In this document: positions 2,968 through 46,494 of the stretch, piece after piece
Layout: the number at the start of each line of letters is the position of its first letter
Numbering within the stretch: position 1 is the first letter of the stretch
The notes under the pieces: model-generated
Database searches by the model: none
The model's input: the letters and a program-made list of their open reading frames with translations, nothing else
What the model was told of the DNA's origin: nothing
Source: an uncultured Clostridia bacterium
GTDB taxonomy: Bacteria > Bacillota > Clostridia > Christensenellales > UBA1242
Assembly (NCBI GenBank): GCA_947628205.1
Contig: CANQYX010000004.1
Coordinates: forward strand, 1 to 46,633
Length of the DNA stretch: 46,633 nucleotides
Reading direction: 5' to 3'
Translations under genes and position numbers: made by a program

Positions 2968-3232
2968 TGAATTGATGAACATTAAAAAAAATAAAAATTA
3001 AAAGTTAAAAATTATAAATAATAAATTGTAAATAATAAATTGTAAAAAGTTAAAAATTAAAAATATAAAAAACAATTAAAAAAAATAAAAAAAGTAAAAA
3101 AGTAAAAAACTAAAAAATAAACTCGTAAAAAAATAAAAAATTATAAAAAATAATAAAAATTTTATAAAAAATCATTAAAAATATAAAAAAATTAGCAAAA
3201 AATAAAAATTTTTAATAAAAAAGGAGAAATTT

Positions 3233-4938: not shown

Positions 4939-7900
4939 ATGAAGGGGAAATTTAAAGTTTTATTTAATGTGGTTTTGTGCTTTACCGCAATTCTGCTTGC
5001 TGGCATCTGCGTGTTTGCCGGTGTTGGAAAGAAGGGGTGCGTAGCACAAGCATTTGGCGAGGCCACAGAAGATTATTCGCTTTGGGATAAAAACACCAAT
5101 GCAATTTTTTCCGTTGAAAAAGTTGCAATTGAGGCTGGGGAAAATTTAACCGAAACTAAAGATTTTTGTAGCCCTCTTTACACCAACACAAATTTGAGTG
5201 ATGATAATGTGCTTAAAAAAATGTATTCTTACAACTTCGCAAACAGTGGCCAAACGCCAACCAATGTGGGCGAGCTTGAAAGGGCAAGTGCGGTTTATTA
5301 TGACGATATTCGAGATGGCACATCTAGAAAAACTGTTGTTCACGACAATGACTTTGTTATGTTGAATAACCGCCCCGATTCTCAAGGGAAATATTATTAC
5401 AGCGAAAATTTAACTTCTAGTTATAAAAACGGCGAAGGCAATGCCAAAATGGTTTACATGCAAGAGGCAATTATGGTCTCTTTTGGCAACTATTTTAGCT
5501 ATACATATTTGGATGAAGAAGGAAACACCGCCGAGGGCTTTGACAAGGCCGGGCAGGTTGAATACACCGATGTTAATGACGACCGAGTTGAAAAGTTCAA
5601 TTCGGGTGCAAACATAGAGTGGATGCGCGTTAGCGCAACTCGCGTTAGAACAGGCAGCCAAACGGTGGAAACTTTAACCGTTCCCGGCTCTCGAACATAT
5701 CAGAACGGGCGCGGACTGCAAAAACAAGATTTTGTTTGGATTATTCCGCAAACAGAAGGGTGCGAAGGGTATTATGAAATTAATGTAAACTTTTCTTACA
5801 ATGGCTTAACAAATGGCTTTACTTTTGGGTTTTACATAGTTTTAGGCAGTTCGTATAATCAGACATTGACGGACAACATGCACAACGATTATTCTGCCTA
5901 TCCATCGCTTAAAAACGCCAGCGCAGTTAACGGAGTGAACCATTTCTATTTGGGTGAAATGGATTTAACTAACAACAATTACCCAACTTTAAGTTACGAT
6001 GTAACAAAATATGCTTTGGATTATGTGCGTGTGGCAAATGGTGTGTCCACTTCGTTTAGTTTTAACAATGTGGAAGATAATGGCAATATGCGTTTGCAAT
6101 CAACCAAAACAACCCCTTCACAAACATATAATTACGATTATCCTATTGGCAAAGTTGGCACAAAGGGCAACATCGCGGTTGTGGTGTTTACCGAGATTGG
6201 CGATTATTCAATTCATTTTAGATATAAATATAACAATGAGATTGCGCCAAACATGAATTTGCAAATTGCAGATATTCAACTTTCAATTCATGGCTTTGAA
6301 CTTAAATACGCAAAGGCAGGTTTCAACGAGGCAGAAATGCGCCATTTAACCTTTGCCAACAACGAAAATGCCAGCACGGCAGAAATGGGCGTGGGCGTGG
6401 TTGTGCCAGATGGTTATAGAAGCGAACAAGAAAGCTCAATTTTGGAAACCGAGTTGGGGGTTATTTACGATTTTGATAGAAACAGCACAAGCGAGGTTGG
6501 TTCGCTTGTAAAACTTGAAAGTGCGTGTGTCGCCGCCAACTCTAACAATTTAACGGTTGATGAATATGTTGACGAAGAACAAGAAACTGGCTTTAACATT
6601 GATTTTGCCAAAACCAATCAAGGTTCGCTTTGGTTTGTGTCTACCGACTCTTTTGTGCAAAGAGCGGGCGAAGAACAGGGCAGTTTTTATTACTACGGGC
6701 AAAATTTAAAAGAGTTAAAATCCGCCGAAATTCAGCCATATTCCAACATTGTTTCGTTTAACCAAACGGGTTACTATTTGGTGTTTATAAAAGTGAACGC
6801 GCAGGGCGTTAACAAAAATTATTATTCAGTTTATGCCTTTAATTACACAGCGGACACCGTTACCGTGCACACCGAAAAAGTGGACGGCGAAAAAACCGTG
6901 TCGATTGCCTCGGACGCGTACACAAACAAAAGTGTTAAAATTTGGTGGGAAGAGCCAGGCGTGTTTGAGCGCGAAATTAGCGTTAAATTTTTAAAAAGCA
7001 AAAACTTTGCGGTGGGCGACAGCCAAACTTTCCCTAGTTGGCAAGAGTTGGCGCTTTCTATTGACACGCAAGGAACAACATTGCAAAACGGGCAAATTGT
7101 TGGCGGGCAAGATGGGCTTGGCGCGGTTGAAAACGGAACAAGTGCAATATTTTTAATTAAGCTTCAAATGGTGGGCAAATCGGCAAGTTTTAGAACATTT
7201 ACTATTGATAAGCAACCAATTACTGGCGTGCAAGCTTATGCGGTTGAAACAAAAATTAATAGGCTGGGCAATGTTATTTATTCGCCAATTAAAAACCAAG
7301 ATGGTGCAAATGTTGCGCTGTTGAACGGAATAACAGATAGTTATGCAACGCTTAACTGGAACAGCAAAGAAAATGCCAGCGGCGCAAAAATTAGCGTTAG
7401 CTACACGCGCACCCCAATTTCGCCAACAAATGCTTACGATGTTAAAGAGATGAGTGGCTGGCTTACAACTAAATACACCTTGGGCAAAACGGTTGGTGAA
7501 ATAGACCTTGAAAAACCGGATTTAAACGGGGAGTTAAACTCGTCAAGCGTATTGTTTGAATCGGGCATATATTTGTTTACACTAACAGACGAGGCAGGCA
7601 ATAGTTGCAGATATTTGTTTGTTATTGACAAAACGGAAAATTATTTTAAAGTTACCGAACAAAACGGAAATTCGGCTTTTGTTACAAGGGATAGCTTGCT
7701 GTATACCGACCAAGTTACCGTAAAAGCCGGCCAATATAAAGCCATTGAATTGCCAAAAACTGGCAACGAAAAAAATGACGAATTGTTCGAGTTTATTTCG
7801 GCAATTGAAAAGCAAGATGGCAGTTTGGCAAGCCTAAATTATTATTCTCAATCTGGCACAAATTCGGGCGTGTTGGCTTCGCTGTTTAAACTTAATGGTT

Positions 7901-10900
7901 CTACCCACTATTTAACGGTTGAAAACAGAACGTTAAGCGTTTACAACAACCAAAGGGAATTGCAACACACGCTTAATGGCCCAACATTTAGTTATGATGT
8001 GTTGGCAAAGGGGTCGTCTAACGTTGAACAACTTTATTTAATTGGGGCAAACCAAATTACAACCAACAATCCGCTAAATTCAAACTCTTATTTGATTGTT
8101 GAAATAAACACCGACCATGCGCTTGGCATGGCATATTATGGCGCAAATGTAACAGCTTTAAGAAATTTTGCAAATTTAACCAACAGCGGCAGCAATGGCG
8201 CAACGCGGCTTTATTATGACAACAACGGAACATTAACTGGCTTAAACGCTGCACACGCAACGGGTGCAGATTATTTGGCATTTAGTTTTAAACTTGGCAC
8301 AAACACAAAATATGAAATTAAAACGGTTGGTTTAAAATATTATCAACTTGAATTATATAAAGATGTGCAAAACGAAAGTTTCTTAACCAATTTCTTTTAC
8401 GCTAACCAACCAAACAAAGAGATAACTTTGTACGATAAAGACAGCGAAATTCCAGATAGTTTGGTGCTTTCTAATGACGAAAATGCGCGTGCGGTTGCCA
8501 TCTTAAACGTGGTGGGCAACAAAACGGTTGAAGGGCTTTATGTTATTACAAGAGAATATGTTACCAACATAGAAGCGGAAGGCGAAAAGGACACCACACT
8601 ATTAGATTATTATTTCTTGGTTGATAGAAATGGCGTTATTGTTTTGTCTAACGAAATTGACGATAAATCTATAAACGGTGGCTACATTTCGCTTGGGCTA
8701 AAAAATAACGAAATTCCATATAGCAGTTTTACAACAATTGGCGTGCCTTCTGGCTCAATTAGATTTGTGGAAAACGGCGCCACGCGCGAAATTGATTATA
8801 ACGTTTATTTAACCACAAACCGCCTTCCTCTTGTTTTGAACGTTCCTTTTGGCAAATATTTCTATTCTAACGAATTTACAGTAAAACCAAACAGCGTTGC
8901 CAACATGCAAAATGGCACAAATTATTATGGCAGTGAATATTTTGCGGGCAGATTGTCGTTTGACTTATACTTTAATGATATTCAGGGGCAACTCTCAGAC
9001 ATAACAACCGTTCCCGTTCATCTGTTATATTCGGTTGAGGCAAGCGGGCAAAAAGGGTATATTTCATATAACATTAAACAGCAATTAACCAACACAGAAA
9101 TTAAAAATTGCTTTGTTGCTGGCGATGGCGAGTTTATTGCCCTTCCGGGTGACTACATTTTAGTTATTAAAGATAATGTTGAGGGCGTTAACAATGTTAA
9201 AGACCAAGCACACCAAAAAGTTATTGGCATAAGGGTAACCAGCAATCTGCCAAGCACTTCGTTGTATGCGTCAAAAAACAAAGACACAAATTCGGTTAAC
9301 GACCAACGCGAATTTGCCGATTCAAGCAACCATTACAAATTAACAACCAACAAAGAGTTTGTTGTAATTGACATGCAAAACTTGGAAGAGGAAATATTTA
9401 ACGGCACCAACATCGCCGCTGAATTAGATTTGGATTATTTGCAAATAACCCAAACTCGCGATGGGGCAAATGTAGAGTATGTAAATTACGACCACGGGCA
9501 TAAAAGCGGATTGATAAATATAGACGATAAAAGCGATTACGCCGAGCGCACCCAGCAGGGCAACAAAACTGTTAATCGTAAAATTTGGCTAAACACATAT
9601 TTAAGAGATGAAAATGGCAAGGTTATAACCAACTTCGACGAGTTGAAAAAAGAATTAAAATACACCATTAAAGTTAGATACAATGTTGTTCAGGACGACA
9701 CAAATTATAGCGATTATTATTATCATCGAGAAGAGGGACAAACCGTTCCTTCGTTTGAGCGAGAATATGTGGTTGAAATTGATAGGGTTCCGCCTCAAGC
9801 CAACACCATCAATTTGGTGGCGCAAGATAGTTTGGCAGCTTTTTACGCACAAGGTGACATGTTTGAAAACTATGTTGGCGGCTTTGATGGCAGCGAAGAA
9901 ACTGAGGATGGAATATATTTTGTTAGAACATATAAAGATTATTATTCTAGTTCAACCAAAGATAGTGCCAACCTTTATGCCTTGCATGTAAACGCCGAAA
10001 CGTTATTTTCGATGGACGATATTGGGCGAATATATACCCGCCCACTATCAGACAATTTGGCAAATTTGCGCTTAACAATTCCGGCGAATGTAAAGAGCGG
10101 AGAATATTCCGAATTCCCTTCCGCCGATAGTTATGGGGATTTTGGCTTTACTGTTGGCAATTATTATGAAATTGTGGAAAAAGATTTGGCAGGCAACTCA
10201 ACCCAATACATAGTGTTCTTTGATAGCGTTGCAAGGCAAGAAAAACTGAATATGACGCTAAAAGCCAAAATTGCCTCGGAAGGAATGGTGCAAGAAAATG
10301 CACAAATTTCGTTTAATTTTGGCGAAACGGAAAATAAAAGTTATACAATTTTCGACATTTCGTCCTGCTCAACTAACGCACCTAAGGATAAATTTTATAT
10401 ATTGATGTTGTATCGCGGTGGCGACAATATTAACACCATTAAAACGGATTTTAAAACGAGTTTTGATGATGACTTTTCAAAAAATATTGTTAAGTTTTTA
10501 ACTGAATTTGGGCCGGGTAACTACAATTTAGTTTTGCTTTCGGAAAACAATCGTGTAACCCACACTATAAATTACCTTGAAGCAATTAGCGAGCTTTTGT
10601 TAGACGGGCTTAAAAAGACAGAAAATGGGCTAGATTATTTGGATTTAGCAGGTGCAAACTATGAACAGTCATCTGGCATAACAATTTATGCTCAAACAAT
10701 AAGGGTGCAACAAAATGAGGTTGACATAACATACAATTGCAGGGTAGAAGACGGGCAATTTAATTATTACGACGAACTGGGCAATCACCCAATCAACAAC
10801 CGATTAACCGAAATTGAAGGAAAAACACTTTTGGGCAGATACCGCATTACCGTTACCGACATGTTTGGCAAAAAATATCCGGCAATTTATTTAACCTTTA

Positions 10901-13320
10901 ACACAAACGAAACCGAACCAAGAGAAATTTCTTTTGGCGAGGATGGCAACGCAAATTATAGTTCATATAACGGGCATTATTATAGCTTTACTCAAGCAAA
11001 TATAAATTTCGACAATTTGGTTTATAACAGCTATTCAATAAATTACACCCTACTTGTTAAAGGCACATATAAAGAGTTAGACCTTAAAACTCTTGGCTAT
11101 ATTTTAGAAACGGTTGAAGATGGCAGAACTTATATCACCATTAAACCATATTATGAGGATAACAACAAAACGGGCGCGGTGTTGTCGGCAGAAATTAACC
11201 TGTCCAACAGCGAGGATGACGAAGATGGCTTCACTTACAGGGTGGTGTTGGACACAACCACGGGCAGCGTGGCATTGCGAGATAACGCGTTAGAGGGTGC
11301 AAACAAAGAGTATAATGTGGATATTAAGTTTGAAGGGGACAATCTGTTTGACACCACATATCCGGCAATATATTCCGGTTTGTTCTATCTATCTTGGTCG
11401 CCATCGTTGGCATCGCAAAGCAATTGGTATAAATTTAATTATGCAATTTACGAGCAAATGTTGGACGGAAGTTACCAGCGCACCGACCTAAACGATGTTA
11501 GCTATTACACAATTTCCACACAAGAAACCTCAACCGGCATTTATCGATTTGTTATTGAAGTTTTAAACACCAATGACTTGGTTTTGGGCTATAAGGTTTA
11601 CACTTTTGCAGTGCAGTCGTCTGGCACCGAAATCTATTCGGTTAAAACAGAGGACAACCGAGTGCTTACGCCAAATTCGCAATTTACCTTTGACGAGGTT
11701 GGAACGTTGTATAATGGTCAACTTGATGGAGTTGACGGAACAAGGTTGGATATTTCGTCAATTAAAATAAACATTCCGCTTTATGTTTACAATCATGAAG
11801 TGGTGGTGGATGTGCCAACAAAGGGCATAAAAGTTGAACTTAAAGAGTGGCACGTGTTTGAAATTACCCAAGCGGACATAACATATAAGTTTACAATTTA
11901 CCGAGTTCATTCGTTGCAAGACACATTTAGCTTGTATTTTGGCACACTGATTGTTTCGTATGCCGATCCTAGTCAGGCCAATTTAATTTCTAACGTGCAG
12001 TTAATTCAGGATGGCGAAACGCACCATGAAATTAGTTCGCCATTTGTCTCTTTAACCAACAACAAATTTTATGGCACGGGCAGTTTTGTTTTGTCGGCCG
12101 AACAGAACCTTGAAGCGGGCGATCAGGACGCGTTAAAAATTATTAGAAAAAACAACATTATAATTTCGATTTGGTGCAATGGCGAATTTGTTAAAAACTA
12201 TTCGGCAACAAACGTTGGGCAAACGTTTAATTTCGACATTTTAGGCAGCGGACAATACACCTTTGTGTTTAAAGATTTGGCAGGCAATCAGCACAACTTT
12301 AACCACAATGGCGAACTAGATGGCAGCAGCAGAAATGTGCCAGAATTGGAATTGGTGGTGTTGCGTGAAATTTCGCTTATTGTTAATGGAATGCAGGCAA
12401 TAAACAACGCTTATTATAATGGGCGAGTGCGCGTTGAAATTTACAGGCCAAGTTTGTTCTATGGCGACACAAGGTTCTTAAACTATTCATTCAGTTTAAA
12501 TGGCGAAAATTATACGCCTGTTGTTAACCAATATTCGTTTACTTTCAGCGGATATGGCACTTACAAAATTCAATATGGAATAAGGATAAACGAGCAACTA
12601 AGTTTAAACAAAGTGTTAACCTTCACAATCGTTAACGAAAACGAAGCAATGCACTCGTTTGATTTAACTCCACTATACAATTACAACATAACAAAACTTG
12701 TTAACAACAGGGGCGAGGAAACAAACAATAAGGGCGAAAGTTTAATTGAAAAATTGAACACGCTTTTAAATGCGCGTCAGGACAAAAACAAATATCTTTT
12801 AACCTACGAATTTTTGCAAGAGCATGCCGAAGAATTGGGTGTAACAAGTGGCAAGCAAATGTTGACTGTAACTTATGTGGTGGATGAAGGTGTTTATTCA
12901 AAGCGAGAGGTGGAATTTGCCTTTACGCTTAACAATCAGTTGCCAAAAATTGATTGCAATGTTGCGCCGGGTGGCACAACCAAGGATAGCTTTACCATAA
13001 CTTATGTGCCTTCAACAATTTATGAATATGTTGGGGATAGCGAACTTTATGTTAACGACATTTTAGTTTGTGGCATAAACGAAAGCTCGTTGAGTGTAAA
13101 CACACCGCAAACTTACAAGGTTTCGTTTAAAAAAGATGGTGCGGGCGATTATTATGTTGTGTTGCGTGGCTCATCTGGAACGGTTCATTCTAGCTTTAAA
13201 ATAACAATTAAAGAGCCACTAAATGTTTGGTCTATAATCGTTATTGTGGTTGTTGTGGCAATATTGCTGGCAATTGTTGGAACAATTATCTTCTTAAGAA
13301 AGAAGATGAAAATTCGCTAA
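4939..13320 (+). CDS. Giant (2793 aa) secreted protein with a C-terminal membrane anchor; function unknown, probably multi-domain beta-sandwich/Ig-like
   Basis: N-terminal signal sequence MKGKFKVLFNVVLCFTAILLAGICVFAGV. C-terminal hydrophobic helix VWSIIVIVVVVAILLAIVGTIIFL followed by RKKMKIR. Recurrent D-x-AGN module-end motifs (TDEAGNS at 7588, KDLAGNS at 10183, KDLAGNQ at 12274). N/Y/T/S-rich. No LPXTG, SLH or enzymatic motif seen. RBS aaaggggaag. Confidence 0.8.
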   Translation: MKGKFKVLFNVVLCFTAILLAGICVFAGVGKKGCVAQAFGEATEDYSLWDKNTNAIFSVEKVAIEAGENLTETKDFCSPLYTNTNLSDDNVLKKMYSYNFANSGQTPTNVGELERASAVYYDDIRDGTSRKTVVHDNDFVMLNNRPDSQGKYYYSENLTSSYKNGEGNAKMVYMQEAIMVSFGNYFSYTYLDEEGNTAEGFDKAGQVEYTDVNDDRVEKFNSGANIEWMRVSATRVRTGSQTVETLTVPGSRTYQNGRGLQKQDFVWIIPQTEGCEGYYEINVNFSYNGLTNGFTFGFYIVLGSSYNQTLTDNMHNDYSAYPSLKNASAVNGVNHFYLGEMDLTNNNYPTLSYDVTKYALDYVRVANGVSTSFSFNNVEDNGNMRLQSTKTTPSQTYNYDYPIGKVGTKGNIAVVVFTEIGDYSIHFRYKYNNEIAPNMNLQIADIQLSIHGFELKYAKAGFNEAEMRHLTFANNENASTAEMGVGVVVPDGYRSEQESSILETELGVIYDFDRNSTSEVGSLVKLESACVAANSNNLTVDEYVDEEQETGFNIDFAKTNQGSLWFVSTDSFVQRAGEEQGSFYYYGQNLKELKSAEIQPYSNIVSFNQTGYYLVFIKVNAQGVNKNYYSVYAFNYTADTVTVHTEKVDGEKTVSIASDAYTNKSVKIWWEEPGVFEREISVKFLKSKNFAVGDSQTFPSWQELALSIDTQGTTLQNGQIVGGQDGLGAVENGTSAIFLIKLQMVGKSASFRTFTIDKQPITGVQAYAVETKINRLGNVIYSPIKNQDGANVALLNGITDSYATLNWNSKENASGAKISVSYTRTPISPTNAYDVKEMSGWLTTKYTLGKTVGEIDLEKPDLNGELNSSSVLFESGIYLFTLTDEAGNSCRYLFVIDKTENYFKVTEQNGNSAFVTRDSLLYTDQVTVKAGQYKAIELPKTGNEKNDELFEFISAIEKQDGSLASLNYYSQSGTNSGVLASLFKLNGSTHYLTVENRTLSVYNNQRELQHTLNGPTFSYDVLAKGSSNVEQLYLIGANQITTNNPLNSNSYLIVEINTDHALGMAYYGANVTALRNFANLTNSGSNGATRLYYDNNGTLTGLNAAHATGADYLAFSFKLGTNTKYEIKTVGLKYYQLELYKDVQNESFLTNFFYANQPNKEITLYDKDSEIPDSLVLSNDENARAVAILNVVGNKTVEGLYVITREYVTNIEAEGEKDTTLLDYYFLVDRNGVIVLSNEIDDKSINGGYISLGLKNNEIPYSSFTTIGVPSGSIRFVENGATREIDYNVYLTTNRLPLVLNVPFGKYFYSNEFTVKPNSVANMQNGTNYYGSEYFAGRLSFDLYFNDIQGQLSDITTVPVHLLYSVEASGQKGYISYNIKQQLTNTEIKNCFVAGDGEFIALPGDYILVIKDNVEGVNNVKDQAHQKVIGIRVTSNLPSTSLYASKNKDTNSVNDQREFADSSNHYKLTTNKEFVVIDMQNLEEEIFNGTNIAAELDLDYLQITQTRDGANVEYVNYDHGHKSGLINIDDKSDYAERTQQGNKTVNRKIWLNTYLRDENGKVITNFDELKKELKYTIKVRYNVVQDDTNYSDYYYHREEGQTVPSFEREYVVEIDRVPPQANTINLVAQDSLAAFYAQGDMFENYVGGFDGSEETEDGIYFVRTYKDYYSSSTKDSANLYALHVNAETLFSMDDIGRIYTRPLSDNLANLRLTIPANVKSGEYSEFPSADSYGDFGFTVGNYYEIVEKDLAGNSTQYIVFFDSVARQEKLNMTLKAKIASEGMVQENAQISFNFGETENKSYTIFDISSCSTNAPKDKFYILMLYRGGDNINTIKTDFKTSFDDDFSKNIVKFLTEFGPGNYNLVLLSENNRVTHTINYLEAISELLLDGLKKTENGLDYLDLAGANYEQSSGITIYAQTIRVQQNEVDITYNCRVEDGQFNYYDELGNHPINNRLTEIEGKTLLGRYRITVTDMFGKKYPAIYLTFNTNETEPREISFGEDGNANYSSYNGHYYSFTQANINFDNLVYNSYSINYTLLVKGTYKELDLKTLGYILETVEDGRTYITIKPYYEDNNKTGAVLSAEINLSNSEDDEDGFTYRVVLDTTTGSVALRDNALEGANKEYNVDIKFEGDNLFDTTYPAIYSGLFYLSWSPSLASQSNWYKFNYAIYEQMLDGSYQRTDLNDVSYYTISTQETSTGIYRFVIEVLNTNDLVLGYKVYTFAVQSSGTEIYSVKTEDNRVLTPNSQFTFDEVGTLYNGQLDGVDGTRLDISSIKINIPLYVYNHEVVVDVPTKGIKVELKEWHVFEITQADITYKFTIYRVHSLQDTFSLYFGTLIVSYADPSQANLISNVQLIQDGETHHEISSPFVSLTNNKFYGTGSFVLSAEQNLEAGDQDALKIIRKNNIIISIWCNGEFVKNYSATNVGQTFNFDILGSGQYTFVFKDLAGNQHNFNHNGELDGSSRNVPELELVVLREISLIVNGMQAINNAYYNGRVRVEIYRPSLFYGDTRFLNYSFSLNGENYTPVVNQYSFTFSGYGTYKIQYGIRINEQLSLNKVLTFTIVNENEAMHSFDLTPLYNYNITKLVNNRGEETNNKGESLIEKLNTLLNARQDKNKYLLTYEFLQEHAEELGVTSGKQMLTVTYVVDEGVYSKREVEFAFTLNNQLPKIDCNVAPGGTTKDSFTITYVPSTIYEYVGDSELYVNDILVCGINESSLSVNTPQTYKVSFKKDGAGDYYVVLRGSSGTVHSSFKITIKEPLNVWSIIVIVVVVAILLAIVGTIIFLRKKMKIR

Positions 13321-15250: not shown

Positions 15251-15419
15251 TAAAATTATCTTAACAATTTTAAATTAAAATGTAAAATAAATTTTAAAAT
15301 TTTTTAAAAAATTTTTTAAAATTTGCATAAAAACACGCAAAAACCGCAAAAAATTAAAATTTTTCACGCCATTTTATGTTTTTAATAAATTTGTTTGTTT
15401 TGCAAATTTAAACAAAATT

Positions 15420-15661: not shown

Positions 15662-15690
15662 ATAATTTATGATGCCTTTTAAACGAATAT

Positions 15691-15725
15691 AGATTCTTCG
15701 ACGCGCTACGCTTGCTCAGAATGAC
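15691..15725. repeat. S-family hairpin unit (TC/GA variant)
   Basis: agattcttcgacgcgctacgcttgctcagaatgac. Same ends as 17013-17057, 29042-29067 and 46469-46494. Confidence 0.8.
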
Positions 15726-16090: not shown

Positions 16091-17014
16091 GTGTCTAGTT
16101 TTAAATTTTTTTTGCGTTCTAACATAAATATTATTATGATTTATCTTGTGCCAGAGGCAAATTGCGTTTGCTTAAATAAGAATTTAACTTTGTTAAAGGG
16201 GGCAAAATACAAATTGCCTAACCCTGAAAATTTTCCGTTAGTGTTTTTGGCAAAGGATAGTGTTCCGCTTACCTTAAATTTGTATGAAATTTGCTGTAAC
16301 TTTGTTAATGGCAAAAATTTGCCCTGTCAAAACGTTTGTAAATTTAATGCTGACTATTTTGTGTTTTTAAATTTTAAGCCAGTTTGCAATTCTGCTTTTC
16401 ACACAATAGATTTTAAAAATAACAAAATTGCAATAAGTTTAAGCCAAATGCTTACCGTTTCAATAAATGGGGAAGTGCTGGCTGAAATGCCAAATTTTAA
16501 TTTGACTTATAGCCATTTTGAAAAATTTAACAATTTTTGCGTTATTTATTTTTTAGGCAGGCGTAACTTTGTGGCAGTTGTTAAGGATGGCGAATTGTTT
16601 TATGCCAATTATTATGATAAATTTGAATGTTCTAGCAACGAATATTATTTTTTAACCTTTTTGAAAGATGGGCTGAATCATGGCAAAGTTTGCCATATTG
16701 GCGCGAACGAAAGCGAACAATATTTGGTGTATTTGGATGAATATAATTTAAATTTAAAGCCCGAGTTTTTGCCACACATATTTTTAGATTGTTTGCTTGC
16801 CGGCAACTATAAATATTGTAATGCGCTTTTGTGCCAAGATTTAAAACAAAATGAGCCAAGCGAAATTGCCAACTTTTTTTGCGAATTTGAAAGGTTTTAT
16901 CCGCTAGACAATTTAACTTTTGCGCTTATAAAAAAAGATGCCGTAGTTGGCATCTATCAATTTGAAATTGAAAATAATGAGATTGTAAATATTAGCGAAA
17001 CAGATTTCTTTTAG
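16091..17014 (+). CDS. Hypothetical Cys/Asn/Phe-rich protein; start uncertain (GTG 16091 or ATG 16136)
   Basis: Long ORF with no recognisable motif. Neither candidate start has a good RBS. The stop codon overlaps the first base of a repeat unit. Confidence 0.5.
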   Translation: MSSFKFFLRSNINIIMIYLVPEANCVCLNKNLTLLKGAKYKLPNPENFPLVFLAKDSVPLTLNLYEICCNFVNGKNLPCQNVCKFNADYFVFLNFKPVCNSAFHTIDFKNNKIAISLSQMLTVSINGEVLAEMPNFNLTYSHFEKFNNFCVIYFLGRRNFVAVVKDGELFYANYYDKFECSSNEYYFLTFLKDGLNHGKVCHIGANESEQYLVYLDEYNLNLKPEFLPHIFLDCLLAGNYKYCNALLCQDLKQNEPSEIANFFCEFERFYPLDNLTFALIKKDAVVGIYQFEIENNEIVNISETDFF

Positions 17015-17057
17015 ATTCTTCACAATTTTCCATAAATGGTAAATTGCTCAGAATGAC
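17013..17057. repeat. S-family hairpin unit (TC/GA variant) with an internal insertion
   Basis: agattcttc-[acaattttccataaatggtaaatt]-gctcagaatgac. Begins at the stop codon of the upstream gene. Confidence 0.75.
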
Positions 17058-17095
17058 CGCATTTCGCCGTTAAATGTGCGGACGAGTCAAATCTT

Positions 17096-17327
17096 GACCT
17101 TATCCCGAAGGCACGAGGTTGGGTGGGTGAACGTATTAGGCATCGGGGTCCCCACAAAAAGTTGTTTGAAGTGGGGGTATAGATTTTGCCCCGCCGTCTA
17201 GTGAACTCAACTAACCGAGTGCCAACGACTTAATCTTGTCCTTATTTGCCAAGGCACGAGGGTAATTGGGCGAGCGATTTAGGCGGATTAGGCCCCGCCG
17301 TTTAGCGAGCCTAATTGCCCGAGTGCC
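17096..17327 (-). repeat. Tandem pair of L-family long-hairpin elements (inverted relative to 2709-2967), one carrying a nested G-family hairpin (17144-17193)
   Basis: 17096-17222 is homologous to the reverse complement of 2816-2967. 17237-17327 is homologous to the reverse complement of 2709-2801. Arms gggtaattgggc (17260-17271) / gcctaattgccc (17309-17320). The last 17 nt overlap the ATPase 3' end. Confidence 0.85.
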
Positions 17328-19878: not shown

Positions 19879-20394
19879 ATGGGATTTGAAAATATTGAAC
19901 TACGGGTTAAGCAACCTTATCCGCAAATTGAGGGCGCAACAGATGATTTGCAAACTGTGGCGGTGTTAAAAGATTTGGCAAACGGGCGAGATGGTGAATT
20001 GTGCGCAATTTTAACCTACATTTTTCAATCGACAATTGCGGATAAAACTAACGATGACATAGGCAAAATTTTTGAAGAAATTGCAATTGTGGAGATGTGC
20101 CATTTGGGGCTTCTTATGCACGCAATTTGCGATTTTGGCGGCACTCCAAAATATGAAATAAGCAGCGGAGCACCATTTAATATTAATAACGTGAATTATA
20201 ACACCAAGTTAAAGGACATTCTGGATATAGACATACGCGAAGAACAGGGTGCAATTGCAAATTACACTCAAGCCATAAAAATGGTTAAAAACCAAAGTTT
20301 AAAAGATTTATTTGCACGCATAATTTTGGACGAACAAAAACATATTGATGCATTAAAACAAGTCCGCGCCCAGGTTCAATTTTTGTCAGTTTAA
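19879..20394 (+). CDS. CotJC-like / manganese-catalase-family ferritin-like protein
   Basis: Blocks GRDGELCAILTYIFQ, IAIVEMCHLGLLMHAI, DIREEQGAIANYTQAI and ILDEQKHIDALKQV parallel the four-helix metal-binding blocks of B. subtilis CotJC. Start moved to ATG 19879 (RBS aaggggat) from the TTG at 19816. Confidence 0.6.
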   Translation: MGFENIELRVKQPYPQIEGATDDLQTVAVLKDLANGRDGELCAILTYIFQSTIADKTNDDIGKIFEEIAIVEMCHLGLLMHAICDFGGTPKYEISSGAPFNINNVNYNTKLKDILDIDIREEQGAIANYTQAIKMVKNQSLKDLFARIILDEQKHIDALKQVRAQVQFLSV

Positions 20395-20600
20395 CAAAAA
20401 ATTATTAAAAATTTTAAAAAATAGTAAAAATTAAATAAAAAATACAAAAAATTAATAAAAAATTAAATATTTTTAAAAATTTTTGTAAAAACGTTAAAAA
20501 AATAAATTAAATTTGCAAAAAATCATAAAAAATTAAAATAAAAATATAAAAAATAATAAAAATTTTAATAAAAATGCAATAATTTGATAAAAATTTATAA

Positions 20601-21392: not shown

Positions 21393-21416
21393 AAAAATAC
21401 GCATTTTTGCGTATTG
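21393..21416 (-). terminator. Hairpin identical to 20601-20624; likely terminator of the minus-strand PRC-barrel gene
   Basis: aaaaaatacgcatttttgcgtatt. A T-run is present only on the minus strand. Confidence 0.55.
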
Positions 21417-21443
21417 TCATGTTGAGCGTAAGCGAAACATCTA
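21417..21443. repeat. S-family hairpin unit (GT/AC variant)
   Basis: gtcatgttgagcgtaagcgaaacatct. Same as the reverse complement of 44613-44639. Confidence 0.8.
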
Positions 21444-28878: not shown

Positions 28879-29170
28879 GTCATGTTGAGCGAACGCGGGG
28901 CCCCCACAAGAACTTTGTTTGCAGTGGGGTTATAAGTGAGTCGAAACAACTAGATCCTTCGCTTTTACCCCATTTCAAATAAAATTCTCATGGGGACCCC
29001 GAACGCTCAGGATGACTTGTTCAACACAATGCACACATATTGTCATTCTGAGCGAAGTGAAGAATCTAAAAAAAGAGGCGAAATGCCTCTTTTTATGTTG
29101 AGATTGCCACGGCAAAATCATGGTGATTTTGCCTCGCAATGACAAGATCCTTCGACAGGCTCAGGATGAC
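28879..29170. repeat. Mosaic cluster of nested S-, G- and A-family hairpin units
   Basis: Six parts. 28879-28951: GT/AC S-unit split by a G-unit (28896-28930). 28952-29016: CC/GG S-unit split by a G-unit (28967-29001). 29042-29067: TC/GA S-unit. 29070-29095: extra hairpin aaaaaagaggcgaaatgcctcttttt. 29100-29143: 44-nt A-unit. 29145-29170: CC/GG S-unit ending 3 nt from the pheT stop. Confidence 0.85.
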
Positions 29171-34208: not shown

Positions 34209-35153
34209 ATGTTAAATTTAATTGTTGCACCTTATGAAATAAGCGAAAATGCCGAAAAATATGCAAAACGTCTTGTCAGTTTTTTGAAGGAACAAAAAAT
34301 TGAATATGCGGTTTATTTCCACACCAGTTTAGACGATGTTGCAAAAAGCGTAAATGAAAGTTTGCTTTTGGGCGAAACTGAGTTTGTTATTGTTGGCGAA
34401 GATGCCACTGTTAATGCGTTTATAAATTCGGTTAAAGATTTGTCTAAAATTAAGCTTGGTATTGTGCCAACTTCAAATCATGACGATTTTGCCAAATTTT
34501 TAGGGCTTAGCACCAACCCAATTCAGGCAATAAAAGATATTTTGCTAAAACAAGTTGAGCCGGTGGACTATTTGGTTTGTAACGACATTAAAGTTGTTAA
34601 CAACATTTTAATTGGGGCAAGTGTGGAAGTGTTTGAAAAATATAACGAACACAGGGTTAAAAACTTTATAACCCAAAAACTTTCTATTATGCAATATGCT
34701 GGCAATTTTGAGGGCGTGGAATTGACATTAGATTTTAAGGGCAACAAAAATGTAACCGAAACGATTTACGAACTTTCAATTGCCAACGGTGGTTTAAGCC
34801 AGGGCAAAAAAATAAGCCCGCTTGCCAATGTGCAGGATGGTCTGTTTAATTTGAACTATACTGCCTTGCCAGAAAAAGAGCAAAGAAAAAAATATTTGTC
34901 TTTATTTAAAAATGGCGAACAAATATATAAAGAGGCAACAAATCAGTTTTGGCTGGAAAGTTTAAAAATAATGCAAGCGGAAAATAAAATTAAGGCCTTG
35001 GTTGATGGCCGCGTTGTTAATTTTGAAAATATGAATGTTTCGGTTGTTGAAAATGGGTTAAAGTTATTTAGAAATTTGAACAACGAAAAATTTGTTGAAA
35101 ACAATTTTGAAAAAAATAAAAAAGAATCTGAGGCAAAACCTAAAAGAAAATAA
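34209..35153 (+). CDS. Diacylglycerol/lipid kinase-fold protein (YegS/BmrU-like) with degenerate signature motifs
   Basis: Layout ..FVIVGEDATVNAFINSV....KLGIVPTSNHDDFAKFLGL.. parallels DAGK_cat ..vv.GGDGTvnevvngl....lgiiP.GTgNDfar.lgi.. However, GGDGT reads GEDAT and GTGND reads TSNHDD. Confidence 0.5.
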   Translation: MLNLIVAPYEISENAEKYAKRLVSFLKEQKIEYAVYFHTSLDDVAKSVNESLLLGETEFVIVGEDATVNAFINSVKDLSKIKLGIVPTSNHDDFAKFLGLSTNPIQAIKDILLKQVEPVDYLVCNDIKVVNNILIGASVEVFEKYNEHRVKNFITQKLSIMQYAGNFEGVELTLDFKGNKNVTETIYELSIANGGLSQGKKISPLANVQDGLFNLNYTALPEKEQRKKYLSLFKNGEQIYKEATNQFWLESLKIMQAENKIKALVDGRVVNFENMNVSVVENGLKLFRNLNNEKFVENNFEKNKKESEAKPKRK

Positions 35154-35241
35154 TTTTAAAAAATTGCAAAAAATTTTTAAAAAATTAAAAAAATAGCCAA
35201 AAATTCAAAAAAATACAAAAAAACAGTTAAAAAATTGAAAA

Positions 35242-35270
35242 ATGCAAAATTTTTTTGCATTTTTTGTTTT
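35242..35270 (+). terminator. Terminator after the lipid-kinase-like gene
   Basis: atgcaaaa-ttt-ttttgcat stem followed by tttttgtttttt. Confidence 0.6.
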
Positions 35271-35381
35271 TTGTGCAGATTTTTTGTGATTTATTTATAT
35301 ATAGAAACAATTATTTATAATTTGACAATTTTTAGATAGATTTAAACTTATTTTTGTTATATTTTGGCGGGAGAAAAAATT

Positions 35382-35573: not shown

Positions 35574-37395
35574 AGAATTAAAGCAAGAGCTTTTAAAGCA
35601 AAAAAAGGCAATTGAAACGAAACATGGAAAGGTTGTGGTTGCAAATTTAAACCCCAGCCCAAGCGAAATTACGGCGGGAATAGACACTATTTCTGCAATT
35701 GAGGCAAATTTGGACGATATAACTGCAACACAAGCCGATGTGCTTAAAGGCAAAAAGTTTATAGATTCCACTGGCAAAATGGCTGAGGGGAATTTAAAAA
35801 ATGTTGATTGGCGTAGCACAACCGCCAGTGTGGCAGATGTGGTTGAGGGCAAGAAATTTGTAGATTCTAATGGCGACCTGCAAACTGGCGAAATGAAGGA
35901 CGTTGACTGGGAAAACACCACAGCAACGCAAGCCGATGTTTTAAGCGGAAAAAAATTTGTTGATGCAGCGGGTGAACTGGTTGATGGCGCGTTAGAAAAA
36001 ACAGATTTTTCGGTTGTAACTGCTGGCGAACAAGACGTGTTGCAAGGCAAGCAATTTTATAATTCAACTGGCGCGCTGGTTGATGGCACAATGAAGGACG
36101 TTGACTGGGAAAACACCACAGCAACGCAAGCCGATGTTTTAAGCGGAAAAAAATTTATAGACCAAAATGGCGATTTAATTTTAGGCACAATGAAAGATGT
36201 TAACTGGGAGGCAACTACAGCCACAACCGCCGATGTTTTGCAGGGCAAACAATTTGTAGATTCTTTAGGCAATTTAGTTGAAGGCAGTTTAAAGGATTTG
36301 GAAATAGAAAGTGTAACTGCAACCGAGCAGGATGTAAAGCAGGGTAAAAAGTTTTTAACCGCTTCGGGCGAACTCGCCGAAGGCCAATTAGAAGAAGTAG
36401 ATTTTAGTGTGGTTACAGCCGAAGAGAACGATGTAAAACTGGGCAAACAGTTTTTAGATTCAACCGGACAATTGAAAGACGGAACTTTTGAGGCAGCCGA
36501 TTGTAGCGAAGTTACCGCAACCGAGCAAGATGTAAAACAGGGCAAAAAGTTTTTAACCGCTTCTGGCGAGCTAAAAGAGGGCACGCTAAAAGATAATTCG
36601 GATTTATACATATACATGCCTGTAAAAAAGACCGCCGACCCTATAGCCGAAATAGATTATGTTTTTGCCGATGACCTCACAGAGGTTAAAATGGGGTTGT
36701 TTAACTCTACGCCATACAAAATGAACATCTGGTTAAACCCAAACACCACGCACATTAACGATGGTGCGTTTAGCGCGTATTTCCGCATCAGCTTAATGAA
36801 TTTTAACGAGCTTTCGTCGCTTAAGTTTATTGGCAAAAGTGCTTGCAGTTCGGTTTATGGGGTGGACACAATGAACATACCGGAGAGCGTAACAACGATT
36901 GAAGCACGCGGGTTGGAAAACTGCGCACTAAACTCGTCCGGCATTAGATTTACCGCCAAAATGTATACACTTGGAGATTATCCTTTTGGTTGCACCACAA
37001 ACTATGTGCCACTTGACACAATCGAGTTCGATGCAGCGAGTAGAATTTTGATAACAAGCGTTGGAATGTGCTATGGCTTTACATGCGACCGAGAAATTGT
37101 TTTGCCAAGTACCACCAAATATATAAGTGATAACACTTTTTCCTTGTCGGAATACAACAGCATTGTTCTGCCAGAAAAACTTATAGACGTTGGCCGAACT
37201 TCATTCTATAACCCAGAAAGAACAAACTGCAAAATGGTTACGTTCAAAGGCGAAAAACCGCCTAAATTTGACTCGTTAGTTTTCCATCCTAACATACAAC
37301 CAGTGTTAAAGATTTACGTTCCTGATGTGTCTGTTCAAGAGTATAAAAACGCGTTGCCAGATTATAAAATTTACCCTATGAGCGAAAGGCCATAA
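35560..37395 (+). CDS. Signal-less protein: coiled-coil N-terminus, nine 33-aa tandem repeats, C-terminal BspA-type LRR domain
   Basis: RBS aggaggga 5 nt before ATG 35560. Repeats of consensus TAT.aDVl.GKkF.ds.G.l.eGtmkdvdw.. The C-terminal region (NIPESVTTIEARGLENC..., VLPSTTKYISDNTFS..., VLPEKLIDVGRTSFY) resembles LRR_5. Confidence 0.75.
   Translation: MERIEELKQELLKQKKAIETKHGKVVVANLNPSPSEITAGIDTISAIEANLDDITATQADVLKGKKFIDSTGKMAEGNLKNVDWRSTTASVADVVEGKKFVDSNGDLQTGEMKDVDWENTTATQADVLSGKKFVDAAGELVDGALEKTDFSVVTAGEQDVLQGKQFYNSTGALVDGTMKDVDWENTTATQADVLSGKKFIDQNGDLILGTMKDVNWEATTATTADVLQGKQFVDSLGNLVEGSLKDLEIESVTATEQDVKQGKKFLTASGELAEGQLEEVDFSVVTAEENDVKLGKQFLDSTGQLKDGTFEAADCSEVTATEQDVKQGKKFLTASGELKEGTLKDNSDLYIYMPVKKTADPIAEIDYVFADDLTEVKMGLFNSTPYKMNIWLNPNTTHINDGAFSAYFRISLMNFNELSSLKFIGKSACSSVYGVDTMNIPESVTTIEARGLENCALNSSGIRFTAKMYTLGDYPFGCTTNYVPLDTIEFDAASRILITSVGMCYGFTCDREIVLPSTTKYISDNTFSLSEYNSIVLPEKLIDVGRTSFYNPERTNCKMVTFKGEKPPKFDSLVFHPNIQPVLKIYVPDVSVQEYKNALPDYKIYPMSERP
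35722..36612 (+). repeat. Nine in-frame 99-bp tandem repeats inside the CDS
   Basis: Unit length is exactly 33 codons. A 66-bp stretch is identical at 35893-35958 and 36091-36156 (198 bp apart). A second near-identical pair lies at about 36313 and about 36511 (also 198 bp apart). Confidence 0.9.
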
Positions 37396-44586: not shown

Positions 44587-44689
44587 GTTATCCTGAACGA
44601 AGTGAAGGATCTAGATGTTTCGCTAACGCTCAACATGACATCGTCGCAACACGCCCCGATTATGTCATCCTGAGCTTGCCGAAGGATCT
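44587..44689. repeat. Three S-family hairpin units
   Basis: 44587-44612 gttatcctgaacgaagtgaaggatct (CC/GG). 44613-44639 agatgtttcgctaacgctcaacatgac (GT/AC, inverted). 44664-44689 gtcatcctgagcttgccgaaggatct (CC/GG). Confidence 0.85.
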
Positions 44690-44694
44690 TATTT

Positions 44695-46242: not shown

Positions 46243-46494
46243 AGATTCTTTGACTCGTTTATTTACCCCATATCAAAGCAAGTTCTCATGGGGACCCCGA
46301 ATTACCCCACTGCCGAACAAAGTTCTTGTGGGGACCCCGAGATCCTTCACTTCGTTAGGATGACATAAGGTTGAGATTGCCACGGTGGTTTGATGGTCAA
46401 ACCGCCTCGCAATGACATGCTGGCGGTGTCATCCTGAGCGAACGAAGTGAGTCGAAGGATCTGGATTTAGATTCTTCGCTTTGCTCAGAATGAC
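46243..46494. repeat. Mosaic cluster of S-, G- and A-family hairpin units
   Basis: Seven parts. 46243-46257: truncated S half. 46265-46299 and 46304-46339: G-units. 46340-46364: CC/GG S-unit. 46373-46416: 44-nt A-unit. 46428-46462: CC/GG S-unit. 46469-46494: TC/GA S-unit. Confidence 0.85.

Follow-up and report, generated by a model that had tools for sequence, protein, structure and literature searches.

An ordinary chromosomal stretch of 46,633 nucleotides (nt) from an uncultured, spore-forming Clostridia bacterium (contig CANQYX010000004.1; the whole stretch is referred to as the window) carries two copies of a 44-nt hairpin element with identical ends, in which the sequence of the central stem has largely been exchanged in a compensatory manner. 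The locus thus raises the question in which form, RNA or folded single-stranded DNA (ssDNA), such a hairpin is conserved, and what might read it. We consider it likely that both copies are CGTC/TGTC-tagged repetitive extragenic palindromic (REP) elements, also described as NTS or SRM (Ssn-related motif) repeats, that are read as folded ssDNA of the – strand by a nuclease of the Ssn family. The repeat family itself is already known, and the window element is a long-stemmed member of it in a Clostridia lineage. New with respect to the literature are the long-stemmed Clostridia subtype itself and the failure of the published SRM search pattern to pick up any of the window's copies.

Two copies of a 44-nt element differ in their apical stem

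The two copies are located as follows:

29100–29143, + strand: copy 1, ATTGC-type 44-nt element, between the pheT stop codon and the terminator
46373–46416, + strand: copy 2, ATTGC-type 44-nt element, between divergent genes and upstream of the M1 peptidase gene

Both were recovered where the initial annotation had placed them. Their ends (GAGATTGCCAC and (C)TCGCAATGAC) and their TGG loop are identical, all 24 non-stem bases being shared, while the 10-bp stems read GGCAAAATCA/TGATTTTGCC in copy 1 and GGTGGTTTGA/TCAAACCGCC in copy 2. As had been claimed from the sequence, six of the ten stem positions differ and every one of these differences is compensated on the opposite arm, with a single wobble in copy 2 (T–G on the + strand, corresponding to an A–C mismatch on the – strand). 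The outer arms (ATTGC and GCAAT) pair as well. On the – strand, copy 1 reads tGTC-ATTGC-GA-(GGCAAAATCA cca TGATTTTGCC)-GTG-GCAAT-CTC, and it lies in a convergent intergenic region with a bidirectional terminator. The pattern GAGATTGCCACGG-N-GCCTCGCAATGAC had two matches in the window and none in 100 shuffles that preserved dinucleotide frequencies, and the predicted two-tier hairpin can be formed by either strand, as DNA or RNA (z-scores –2.5 to –4.9).

The apical stem is conserved as a pairing

The variation of this subtype was followed in 14 distinct copies, comprising the two in the window and twelve from related rabbit-gut Clostridia metagenome-assembled genomes (MAGs). When 185,579 species representatives were searched, three related rabbit-gut MAGs were the only ones to contain the TGG-loop form of 44 nt. 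Across the 14 copies, eight of the ten apical pairs change on both sides and 96.7% of the apical-stem cells are paired (32–42% if the partner is shifted by 1–3 columns), with ends, foot and loop being invariant or nearly so. The apical 10-bp stem is therefore kept as a pairing and not as a sequence, even if a few copies contain single uncompensated mismatches. Further copies with unpaired stems had been named beforehand as the finding that would make the likeness of the two copies a coincidence, and the outcome favoured pairing: of 136 distinct interiors, taken from many phyla, 92% form a stem of 4 bp or more.

The initial annotation had concluded that the hairpin rather than its sequence is conserved. 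This holds for the apex. Foot (5 bp), tags (GAG/GAC) and internal loop (CAC/CTC) are, by contrast, conserved in sequence across phyla, and it is these positions that the known partner enzyme reads (see below). The possibility that the apical hairpin is an independently mobile mini-element nested in the ATTGC shell was rejected. In a search of the lineage, TGG-loop hairpins with stems of at least 7 bp were found inside ATTGC shells only, indicating that the apex belongs to the element itself instead of having been inserted separately.

Because these 14 natural variants mark both the parts read by sequence (head, foot, asymmetric internal loop and the C after the palindrome, in the 44-nt subtype also the TGG loop) and the part that needs only to pair (the 10-bp apex), they form a ready mutagenesis series for an Ssn-type site, useful for engineering Ssn nucleases as site-specific ssDNA cutters.

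The ends of the element recur across phyla, phages and plasmids

Window-type ends enclosing any interior of 15–35 nt were found at no fewer than 120 loci in genomes of many phyla and groups (including Oscillospiraceae, Bacteroidota, Proteobacteria, Chloroflexota, Elusimicrobia, candidate phyla and Actinomycetota), in 108 viral contigs, among them some clear phages that encode capsid proteins, and on plasmids of Methylosinus, Methylocystis and Halomonas. This distribution is patchy, and the canonical 34-nt form (GAGATTGCCACGTCGCTACGCTCCTCGCAATGAC) had no match in 5,426 E. coli genomes. The family thus extends far beyond what the published search pattern shows, into spore-forming gut Clostridia, candidate phyla and phage genomes, which bears on what role such repeats have outside Neisseria and on how they spread.

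Conservation at these ends is sharply bounded. GAC (GTC on the opposite strand) is kept in 392 of 400 elements, and the G at –1, which on the GTCAT strand is the C that follows the palindrome, is the best conserved flank position (96%). The base preceding GTC is T in 68% and C in 24% of 462 elements. On either side conservation ends abruptly, three bases ahead of the foot and one base past GAC, beyond which the flanks are unrelated. With head and tail constant, the outer stem covaries between subtypes (ATTGC, ATTCT, ATCCT, ATGTT, ATTCC and ATACT), every variant beginning with AT.

A few of these loci deserve separate mention. Upstream of M1 peptidase orthologues in several distant Christensenellales-like genomes, clusters of superfamily elements of varied subtypes (ATTAC, ATTGC-CGC, ATACT, ATGTC and ATTCC) were present (L363 2192–2397, L370 1924–2140, L382 2184–2324 and L345 2287–2310), reflecting either repeated colonisation of this site or retained elements that diverged; the ATTGC-type copies of L370 are those of Pumilibacter intestinalis CLA-AA-M10, a culturable carrier. 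In phage contigs, elements lie in the structural module (L228/L261 1544–3563, L254 1001–4326 and L215 3886–3924), and in two contig groups inverted elements bracket the scaffold and major capsid genes. Finally, plasmid pOB3b1 of Methylosinus trichosporium OB3b (L319 2455–2535) carries an inverted doublet of ATTGC-type elements that lie 20 nt apart, their head being CGTC and their tail CCA-like. This doublet is situated between convergent genes, is unannotated in the record and corresponds to the head-to-head dimer form described for CGTC REPs.

The element probably belongs with CGTC-tagged REP and NTS/SRM repeats

Read on the – strand, the element takes the form (T/C)GTC-AT-NNN...NNN-AT-C, and this pattern of head, foot and tail is that of the CGTC-tagged REP superfamily. 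Its members have an unpaired CGTC or TGTC tag, stems initiated by A-T and a short tail, are found downstream of open reading frames (ORFs), and include dRS3 of Neisseria, while no dedicated transposase was found for them (Di Nocera et al. 2013, BMC Genomics, PMC3733652). NTS (CGTCATTCCCGCGMAVGCGGGAATCYRG), the oriented 28-nt form of dRS3, and the related SRM repeats flank ssnA, a 94-aa single-domain GIY-YIG gene, in many bacteria (Chenal et al., Nat Commun 2025, PMC11893778). Since dRS3 figures in both papers and the head is common to both sets of repeats, CGTC REPs and SRMs probably constitute one family.

SsnA binds and cuts its repeat solely as ssDNA of one strand, and not as the reverse strand, double-stranded DNA or RNA (PMC11893778). 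Such ssDNA-only binding and cleavage was demonstrated for the Ssn proteins of Neisseria, N. elongata, N. wadsworthii and Wolbachia (PMC11893778). In SsnA, binding depends critically on the C that follows the palindrome, and cleavage on the 3 nt that precede it (PMC11893778). The most conserved flank positions of the elements collected here are exactly those that proved critical in this mutagenesis.

Both window copies have the SRM head HGTCWY right before the palindrome (tGTCAT on the – strand) and the SRM cytosine directly after it (GCAAT-C-TC). As to the features of CGTC REPs, both carry an unpaired terminal TGTC (an allowed variant of CGTC, as is CCTC) and complementary A-T in stem positions 1 and 2 (foot ATTGC/GCAAT). 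The extragenic placement of CGTC REPs, mostly between convergent or co-directional ORFs and near 3′ ends, is shared by copy 1, which lies between convergent genes, and by the elements across the family. The two copies lack the 8–9 bp stem, 4–5 nt loop and CCA-like tail of CGTC REPs. In their place, a 5-bp foot leads through a GA/GTG internal loop into a 10-bp apical stem capped by a 3-nt loop, and the tail is CTC; among the wider set of elements, the apical stem measures 2–13 bp and the tail is CTC or CTA. The CGTC-REP paper itself mentions units with other stems, loops and tails (PMC3733652).

The likeness to the published repeats goes further. NTS and SRM repeats are oriented hairpins with a (C/T)GTC head, an AT-initiated foot and a C directly after the palindrome, of a size (20–50 nt) that includes the window element, present in some species as hundreds of clustered intergenic copies per genome and on both sides of the ssn gene; their SsnA mutagenesis map fits the conservation profile seen here (PMC11893778). 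The CGTC REPs (families CGTC-1 to -4, including Neisseria dRS3 and Rickettsia RPE-4 and RPE-6) likewise combine an unpaired CGTC/TGTC tag, an A-T stem start and a short unpaired tail, lie mostly between convergent or co-directional ORFs near 3′ ends, and can occur as several families in one genome (PMC3733652). The window element differs from NTS/SRM in having an ATTGC foot with a GA/GTG internal loop and a freely varying 10-bp apical hairpin, whereas NTS/SRM has a continuous ATTCCCGC stem. It also differs in its spore-forming Clostridia host, as most published homologues are from Gram-negative bacteria (PMC11893778), and CGTC REPs were reported from five phyla that do not include Bacillota (PMC3733652). 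An exact-sequence search of the literature returned chance primer matches only, and the element is described neither in REP survey tools nor in the HUH phylogenomics paper.

ssn-like GIY-YIG genes lie between window-type elements

Among the 120 loci chosen by the element pattern alone, three (L003, L050 and L073) hold a GIY-YIG gene (PF01541) directly between or beside window-type elements. Their hosts, an Oscillospiraceae MAG, Flavihumibacter soli and a Smithella, represent three phyla. The encoded proteins measure 98 aa (L003) and 102 aa (L050), that of L073 being truncated at the contig edge, and the catalytic Tyr/Tyr/Glu spacing of the L003 protein (Y7, Y18, E66) fits the Y6, Y17 and E64 reported for SsnA. 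In L073 (100–145), the element itself supplies the stop codon of the ssn-like gene (aTGAgattgcc), so that gene and repeat abut without spacer.

A metagenome scan with these GIY-YIG proteins returned 80 loci. A superfamily element was present within 300 nt of the ssn-like gene in 72 of them and on both sides in 56, at a density tenfold that found further away. ATTGC was the commonest outer stem, the GTC heads pointed outwards, and elements with the exact window-type ends, 33–45 nt long, occurred at seven of the 80. The repeat–ssn–repeat arrangement is thus found for window-type ends in other genomes, namely at these seven loci and at L003, L050 and L073. Some homologues are flanked by the exact Neisseria-type NTS, which links this clade of GIY-YIG proteins to the published family.

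What co-occurs with this kind of element is thus an Ssn-type ssDNA nuclease with a single GIY-YIG domain, which takes the place of the RAYT or RNA-binding protein that had been suggested. Mobilisation as a classical REP/REPIN by a RAYT (a Y1 HUH transposase) would agree with the REP-like size, the palindrome with its unpaired tag, and the extragenic, clustered occurrence including inverted doublets such as that on Methylosinus pOB3b1. However, the tag is YGTC (head GTCA) and not GT[AG]G, and the gene flanked by elements is GIY-YIG and not Y1, no Y1 transposase being found nearby. All-against-all BLAST of the ORFs around the 120 matches yielded no recurrent neighbour, the largest protein cluster spanning four loci, which can be ascribed to solo copies far outnumbering ssn-linked ones; the protein clusters around viral matches represent related phages only. 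Moreover, inverted pairs enclose ordinary genes (encoding a Rieske oxygenase, capsid and scaffold proteins, and a glycosyltransferase), which also led us to reject a composite transposon. CGTC REPs lack a dedicated transposase according to Di Nocera et al. (PMC3733652), and the canonical 34-nt form is without a match in E. coli, a species that has RAYT and REPs. Taken together, a RAYT-driven origin is very improbable.

GTAG REPs and REPINs with their RAYT (TnpA-REP, Y1 HUH) remain a useful parallel, in that a small nuclease, with the repeats on either side of its own gene, reads a short extragenic tagged palindrome in folded single-stranded form. They differ in tag (GT[AG]G, compared with YGTC here) and nuclease fold (HUH Y1, compared with GIY-YIG), and REP sequences are species-specific, whereas the window-type head and foot recur across phyla.

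Several observations weigh against reading the window copies as Ssn targets. In N. meningitidis SsnA (CAX49033.1), changing the palindrome with the hairpin kept abolished activity (PMC11893778), so that tolerance of the apex in the 44-nt subtype is deduced from natural variation. The published SRM pattern (HGTCWYN(0-2)YYVSBRHN(0-5)WNVSBRGN(0-2)RNCYNB) had no match in the window and fits neither copy, since their interior of 34 nt exceeds its maximum of 23 and the foot bases TG (of TGC) break its YY positions. This pattern finds six of the 80 ssn-like loci, compared with 72 by head, foot and tail; it is a search heuristic and not a family boundary. No ssn-like gene was found in the 46.6-kb window or in the examined loci of relatives, so that an Ssn partner is putative for this genome. 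The L003 and L050 proteins probably belong to the published Ssn clade (cd10448), judging from their size, single GIY-YIG domain, Tyr/Tyr/Glu spacing and NTS-flanked homologues rather than from a direct comparison with SsnA. Lastly, neither a target-site duplication nor a target motif is visible at the element flanks.

The lack of an ssn gene in the window and in the relatives' loci might indicate that the copies are orphan relics without any partner in this genome, whose pairing is kept passively by replication template switching. In quasi-palindromes, such switching can copy one arm to the other in a single step (PMC8794818), which agrees with the 182 of 226 distinct apical stems (80%) that are perfect and with the random-looking mismatches in the remainder. 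In addition, orthologous 44-nt copies in two MAGs differ by one base within diverged flanks, pointing to largely vertical inheritance. Template switching does not explain why, in the 14 copies, 24 non-stem positions are invariant beside eight of ten changing pairs, nor why the asymmetric CAC/CTC and GAG/GAC positions have not been symmetrised. Near-identical stems at separate loci within one MAG (L204 and L207) point to recent copying, and the sequence examined is a small part of these genomes. We therefore regard unread relics as unlikely and favour elements that are read by an Ssn-type nuclease.

Sequence signatures point to an inserted DNA element

Stable small RNAs had been named as something to test for, and more generally the covariation could reflect selection on a cis-acting RNA structure such as a 3′ untranslated region stabiliser, a processing site or a protein-binding hairpin. 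Both copies are situated in probably transcribed regions (copy 1 between the pheT stop codon and its terminator) and fold stably as RNA. Placement across the family favours convergent and 3′ positions (36 convergent versus 15 divergent), co-directional copies being nearer the upstream stop codon. A related copy is also present at high depth and in many contexts in gut metatranscriptome contigs, even if these contigs carry no strand information and may include DNA. In this 39-nt copy (L039 4897–4935; interior GCCAGTGTGCGCACTGG), contig coverage was several-fold deeper than in the flanks in four gut metatranscriptome assemblies, and many contigs part precisely at its borders and continue into unrelated sequence, so that the same type of copy occurs in many transcribed contexts of that gut community.

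Orientation and mismatch data do not support an RNA role, however. Orientation relative to the flanking genes is even (25 versus 26; 30 versus 32 after deduplication; 27 versus 20 in phage contigs), and the asymmetric tags are retained whichever way transcription runs. Mismatches in the apical stems comprise 31 of the transversion type versus 12 and 6 of the wobble type on one or the other strand. The wobble type is thus not enriched, and the tolerance of G–U pairs seen in selected RNA is absent. Rfam yielded nothing for the element, be it at the gathering threshold or with E-values of up to 10, and the RNA form is not bound by SsnA (PMC11893778). Selection on RNA is consequently an improbable explanation, and the small-RNA role was not upheld. 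Elements in untranslated regions would still be co-transcribed, any effect on the mRNA then being secondary.

The pheT locus is instructive in this respect. In two relatives whose PheT is 88–89% identical (L122 and L142), the terminator directly follows the pheT stop codon and the elements are absent, whereas about 75 nt, made up of two elements, separate stop codon and terminator in the window. Elements were thus gained at the pheT 3′ site relative to close relatives. Together with the even orientation, the lack of G–U enrichment and the sharp boundaries, this absence argues for an inserted DNA element. The M1 peptidase orthologues, at most 61% identical, are too distant for an empty-site comparison, and an exact-protein look-up with PheS for strain-level empty sites returned one short contig. 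A replication-strand test by local GC skew was not significant in genomes (96 versus 81); in viral contigs the GAGAT orientation lay on the G-rich strand in 137 versus 48 cases, which is significant, but these contigs are mutually related and their loci not independent.

A folded ssDNA site and its possible mobility

In its working form the element would be an ssDNA hairpin of the window's – strand, composed of 5′-(T)GTC / ATTGC / GA / variable apical hairpin / GTG / GCAAT / C TC-3′. A single-domain GIY-YIG nuclease of the Ssn family would read the unpaired GTC head, the foot initiated by A-T/T-A and the C just after the palindrome, and would make its cut on that strand, a few bases 5′ of GTC. 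Itself unread, the apical stem would serve solely to close the hairpin, with only those copies that pair persisting or propagating. Its sequence could then drift, and the 14 natural variants indeed suggest that the apical stem acts as a clamp only. The window's Clostridia genome presumably encodes an Ssn of its own, and solo hairpins may have been spread by Ssn or an ssn unit. Part of the paired apical change may arise in one step, by hairpin-templated template switching during replication, which would fit the predominance of perfect stems while leaving the invariant asymmetric positions unexplained.

More tentatively, an ssn gene with outward hairpin ends might constitute a unit resembling an insertion sequence (IS), with the GIY-YIG ssDNA nuclease as its transposase, and solo hairpins might be non-autonomous derivatives, akin to miniature inverted-repeat transposable elements (MITEs), that move as folded ssDNA. 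Such units would explain the sharp boundaries, the lack of target-site duplication, the insertions nested in apices (see below), carriage by phages and spread across phyla. The gain at the pheT site, the outward heads at 56 of the 80 ssn loci and the near-identical copies within one MAG fit this idea without demonstrating movement or its mechanism, and we judge it possible though doubtful. If true, it would represent a new mechanistic class of prokaryotic transposon.

Integron attC sites offer another parallel, being folded-single-strand sites with conserved basal boxes, orienting asymmetric unpaired bases and a variable terminal structure. The core sites of attC have the consensus R″/R′ = RYYYAAC ... 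GTTRRRY, whereas the ends of the window copies, read directly, are GAGATTGC ... GCAATGAC. Neither R″/R′ core sites nor gene cassettes or an integrase are present here, and the copies are dispersed instead of being arranged in cassette arrays. The small dispersed repeats (SDR) of Nostocaceae, which Elhai et al. are said to have described in 2008, reportedly measure about 20–30 nt, look mobile and insert into each other and into hairpins. To our knowledge, they are limited to cyanobacteria, have other sequences than the window element and have no known enzyme. Readings of the element as a hammerhead ribozyme, K-turn, CsrA site or boxA were dismissed on reading the sequence.

Further superfamily elements in the window

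A scan of the window for G-AT-NNN ... NNN-AT-GAC gave 14 matches versus about five expected, twelve of which are listed here, with ATTCT/AGAAT, ATCCT/AGGAT, ATGTT/AACAT and ATTGC/GCAAT as outer stems. At least 11 further elements of the same architecture but other outer stems, overlooked in the initial annotation, are present. The 320-bp region between the leucine-rich-repeat (LRR) gene and pheT consists nearly entirely of superfamily elements plus two terminators, and a different small hairpin is nested in the apex of two of its elements:

28879–28952, – strand: degenerate ATGTT-type shell (tagTTGTT TCGACTCAC ... CGCTC AACATGAC) with the second nested CCCCA..TGGGG element, read directly
28951–29016, + strand: ATCCT-type shell (tagATCCT TCGC ... 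CGCTC AGGATGAC) whose apex carries a nested CCCCAT..ATGGGGACCCCGA hairpin element, read directly
29042–29068, – strand: ATTCT/AGAAT element (tagATTCT TCACTTCGCTC AGAATGAC), across the terminator from copy 1
29070–29098, no strand assigned: bidirectional intrinsic terminator (AAAAAGAGGCgaaatGCCTCTTTTT) common to the convergent LRR gene and pheST
29144–29170, + strand: ATCCT/AGGAT element (aagATCCT TCGACAGGCTC AGGATGAC) adjoining copy 1, with its end 3 nt short of the pheT stop codon

The first two shells stand head-to-head with CTAG in common. Elsewhere in the window, the following elements were found:

15690–15725, + strand: superfamily element tagATTCT TCGACGCGCTACGCTTGCTC AGAATGAC
17012–17057, + strand: ATTCT-type element with a long apical hairpin (CAATTTTCCAT aaa TGGTAAATTG)
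21416–21443, – strand: superfamily element tagATGTT TCGCTTACGCTC AACATGAC
44612–44639, + strand: superfamily element tagATGTT TCGCTAACGCTC AACATGAC, downstream of the M1 peptidase and dUTPase genes
44664–44690, – strand: superfamily element aagATCCT TCGGCAAGCTC AGGATGAC
46339–46364, + strand: superfamily element gagATCCT TCACTTCGTT AGGATGAC
46428–46463, – strand: superfamily element cagATCCT TCGACTCACTTCGTTCGCTC AGGATGAC
46468–46494, + strand: superfamily element tagATTCT TCGCTTTGCTC AGAATGAC

The long apex of the element at 17012–17057 indicates that variable apices are not confined to the ATTGC type. Superfamily elements fill almost all of several intergenic regions of the window, and their translation yields spurious small ORFs in annotation.

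The nested hairpins belong to a second small family (TTACCCCAy..n16..rTGGGGACCCCGA), located at 2857–2893, 17144–17179 (– strand), 28896–28932 (– strand), 28965–29003, 46263–46301 and 46303–46341. Two of these lie in the apices of the ATCCT- and ATGTT-type shells (28951–29016 and 28879–28952), and one lies within a larger repeat (2818–2950). This nesting suggests that hairpin apices may be targets for insertion.

Genomic setting and other repeats

The source organism is from rabbit gut, its relatives being ‘Lapin’ MAGs and Candidatus Onthoplasma, and its intergenic DNA is very AT-rich. Only four sequencing runs contain the window, all of them DNA from rabbit gut. Its genes include those of the gerA/gerB/gerC type, spoIIR, ypeB, pheST, and secE-nusG followed by small ORFs; a scan for tRNA and tmRNA genes found none.

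Longer repeats of about 85–130 nt, forming long imperfect hairpins (GGTTGGTTAGGTTCACTTAACG...CCTAACCAACCTCGCGCC...GCAAATAAGGT), were noted at 2715–2800 and 2818–2950, between a cell-wall hydrolase gene (1994–2707) and ypeB. An inverted copy (17060–17320) is situated beside a P-type ATPase gene and overlaps part of its 3′ end. These repeats had no Rfam match at the gathering threshold.

An ORF of 2,793 aa (4939–13320) had no Pfam match at E-values up to 0.001, and the gene of a BspA-type leucine-rich-repeat protein contains eight tandem 99-nt (33-aa) repeats (35736–36590). A-tracts phased at about 10–11 bp (spacings 10, 21, 10...) occur in long intergenic stretches at 1868–2000, 2981–3230, 15278–15400, 20367–20600 and 35142–35300, which are likely intrinsically curved DNA upstream of promoters.

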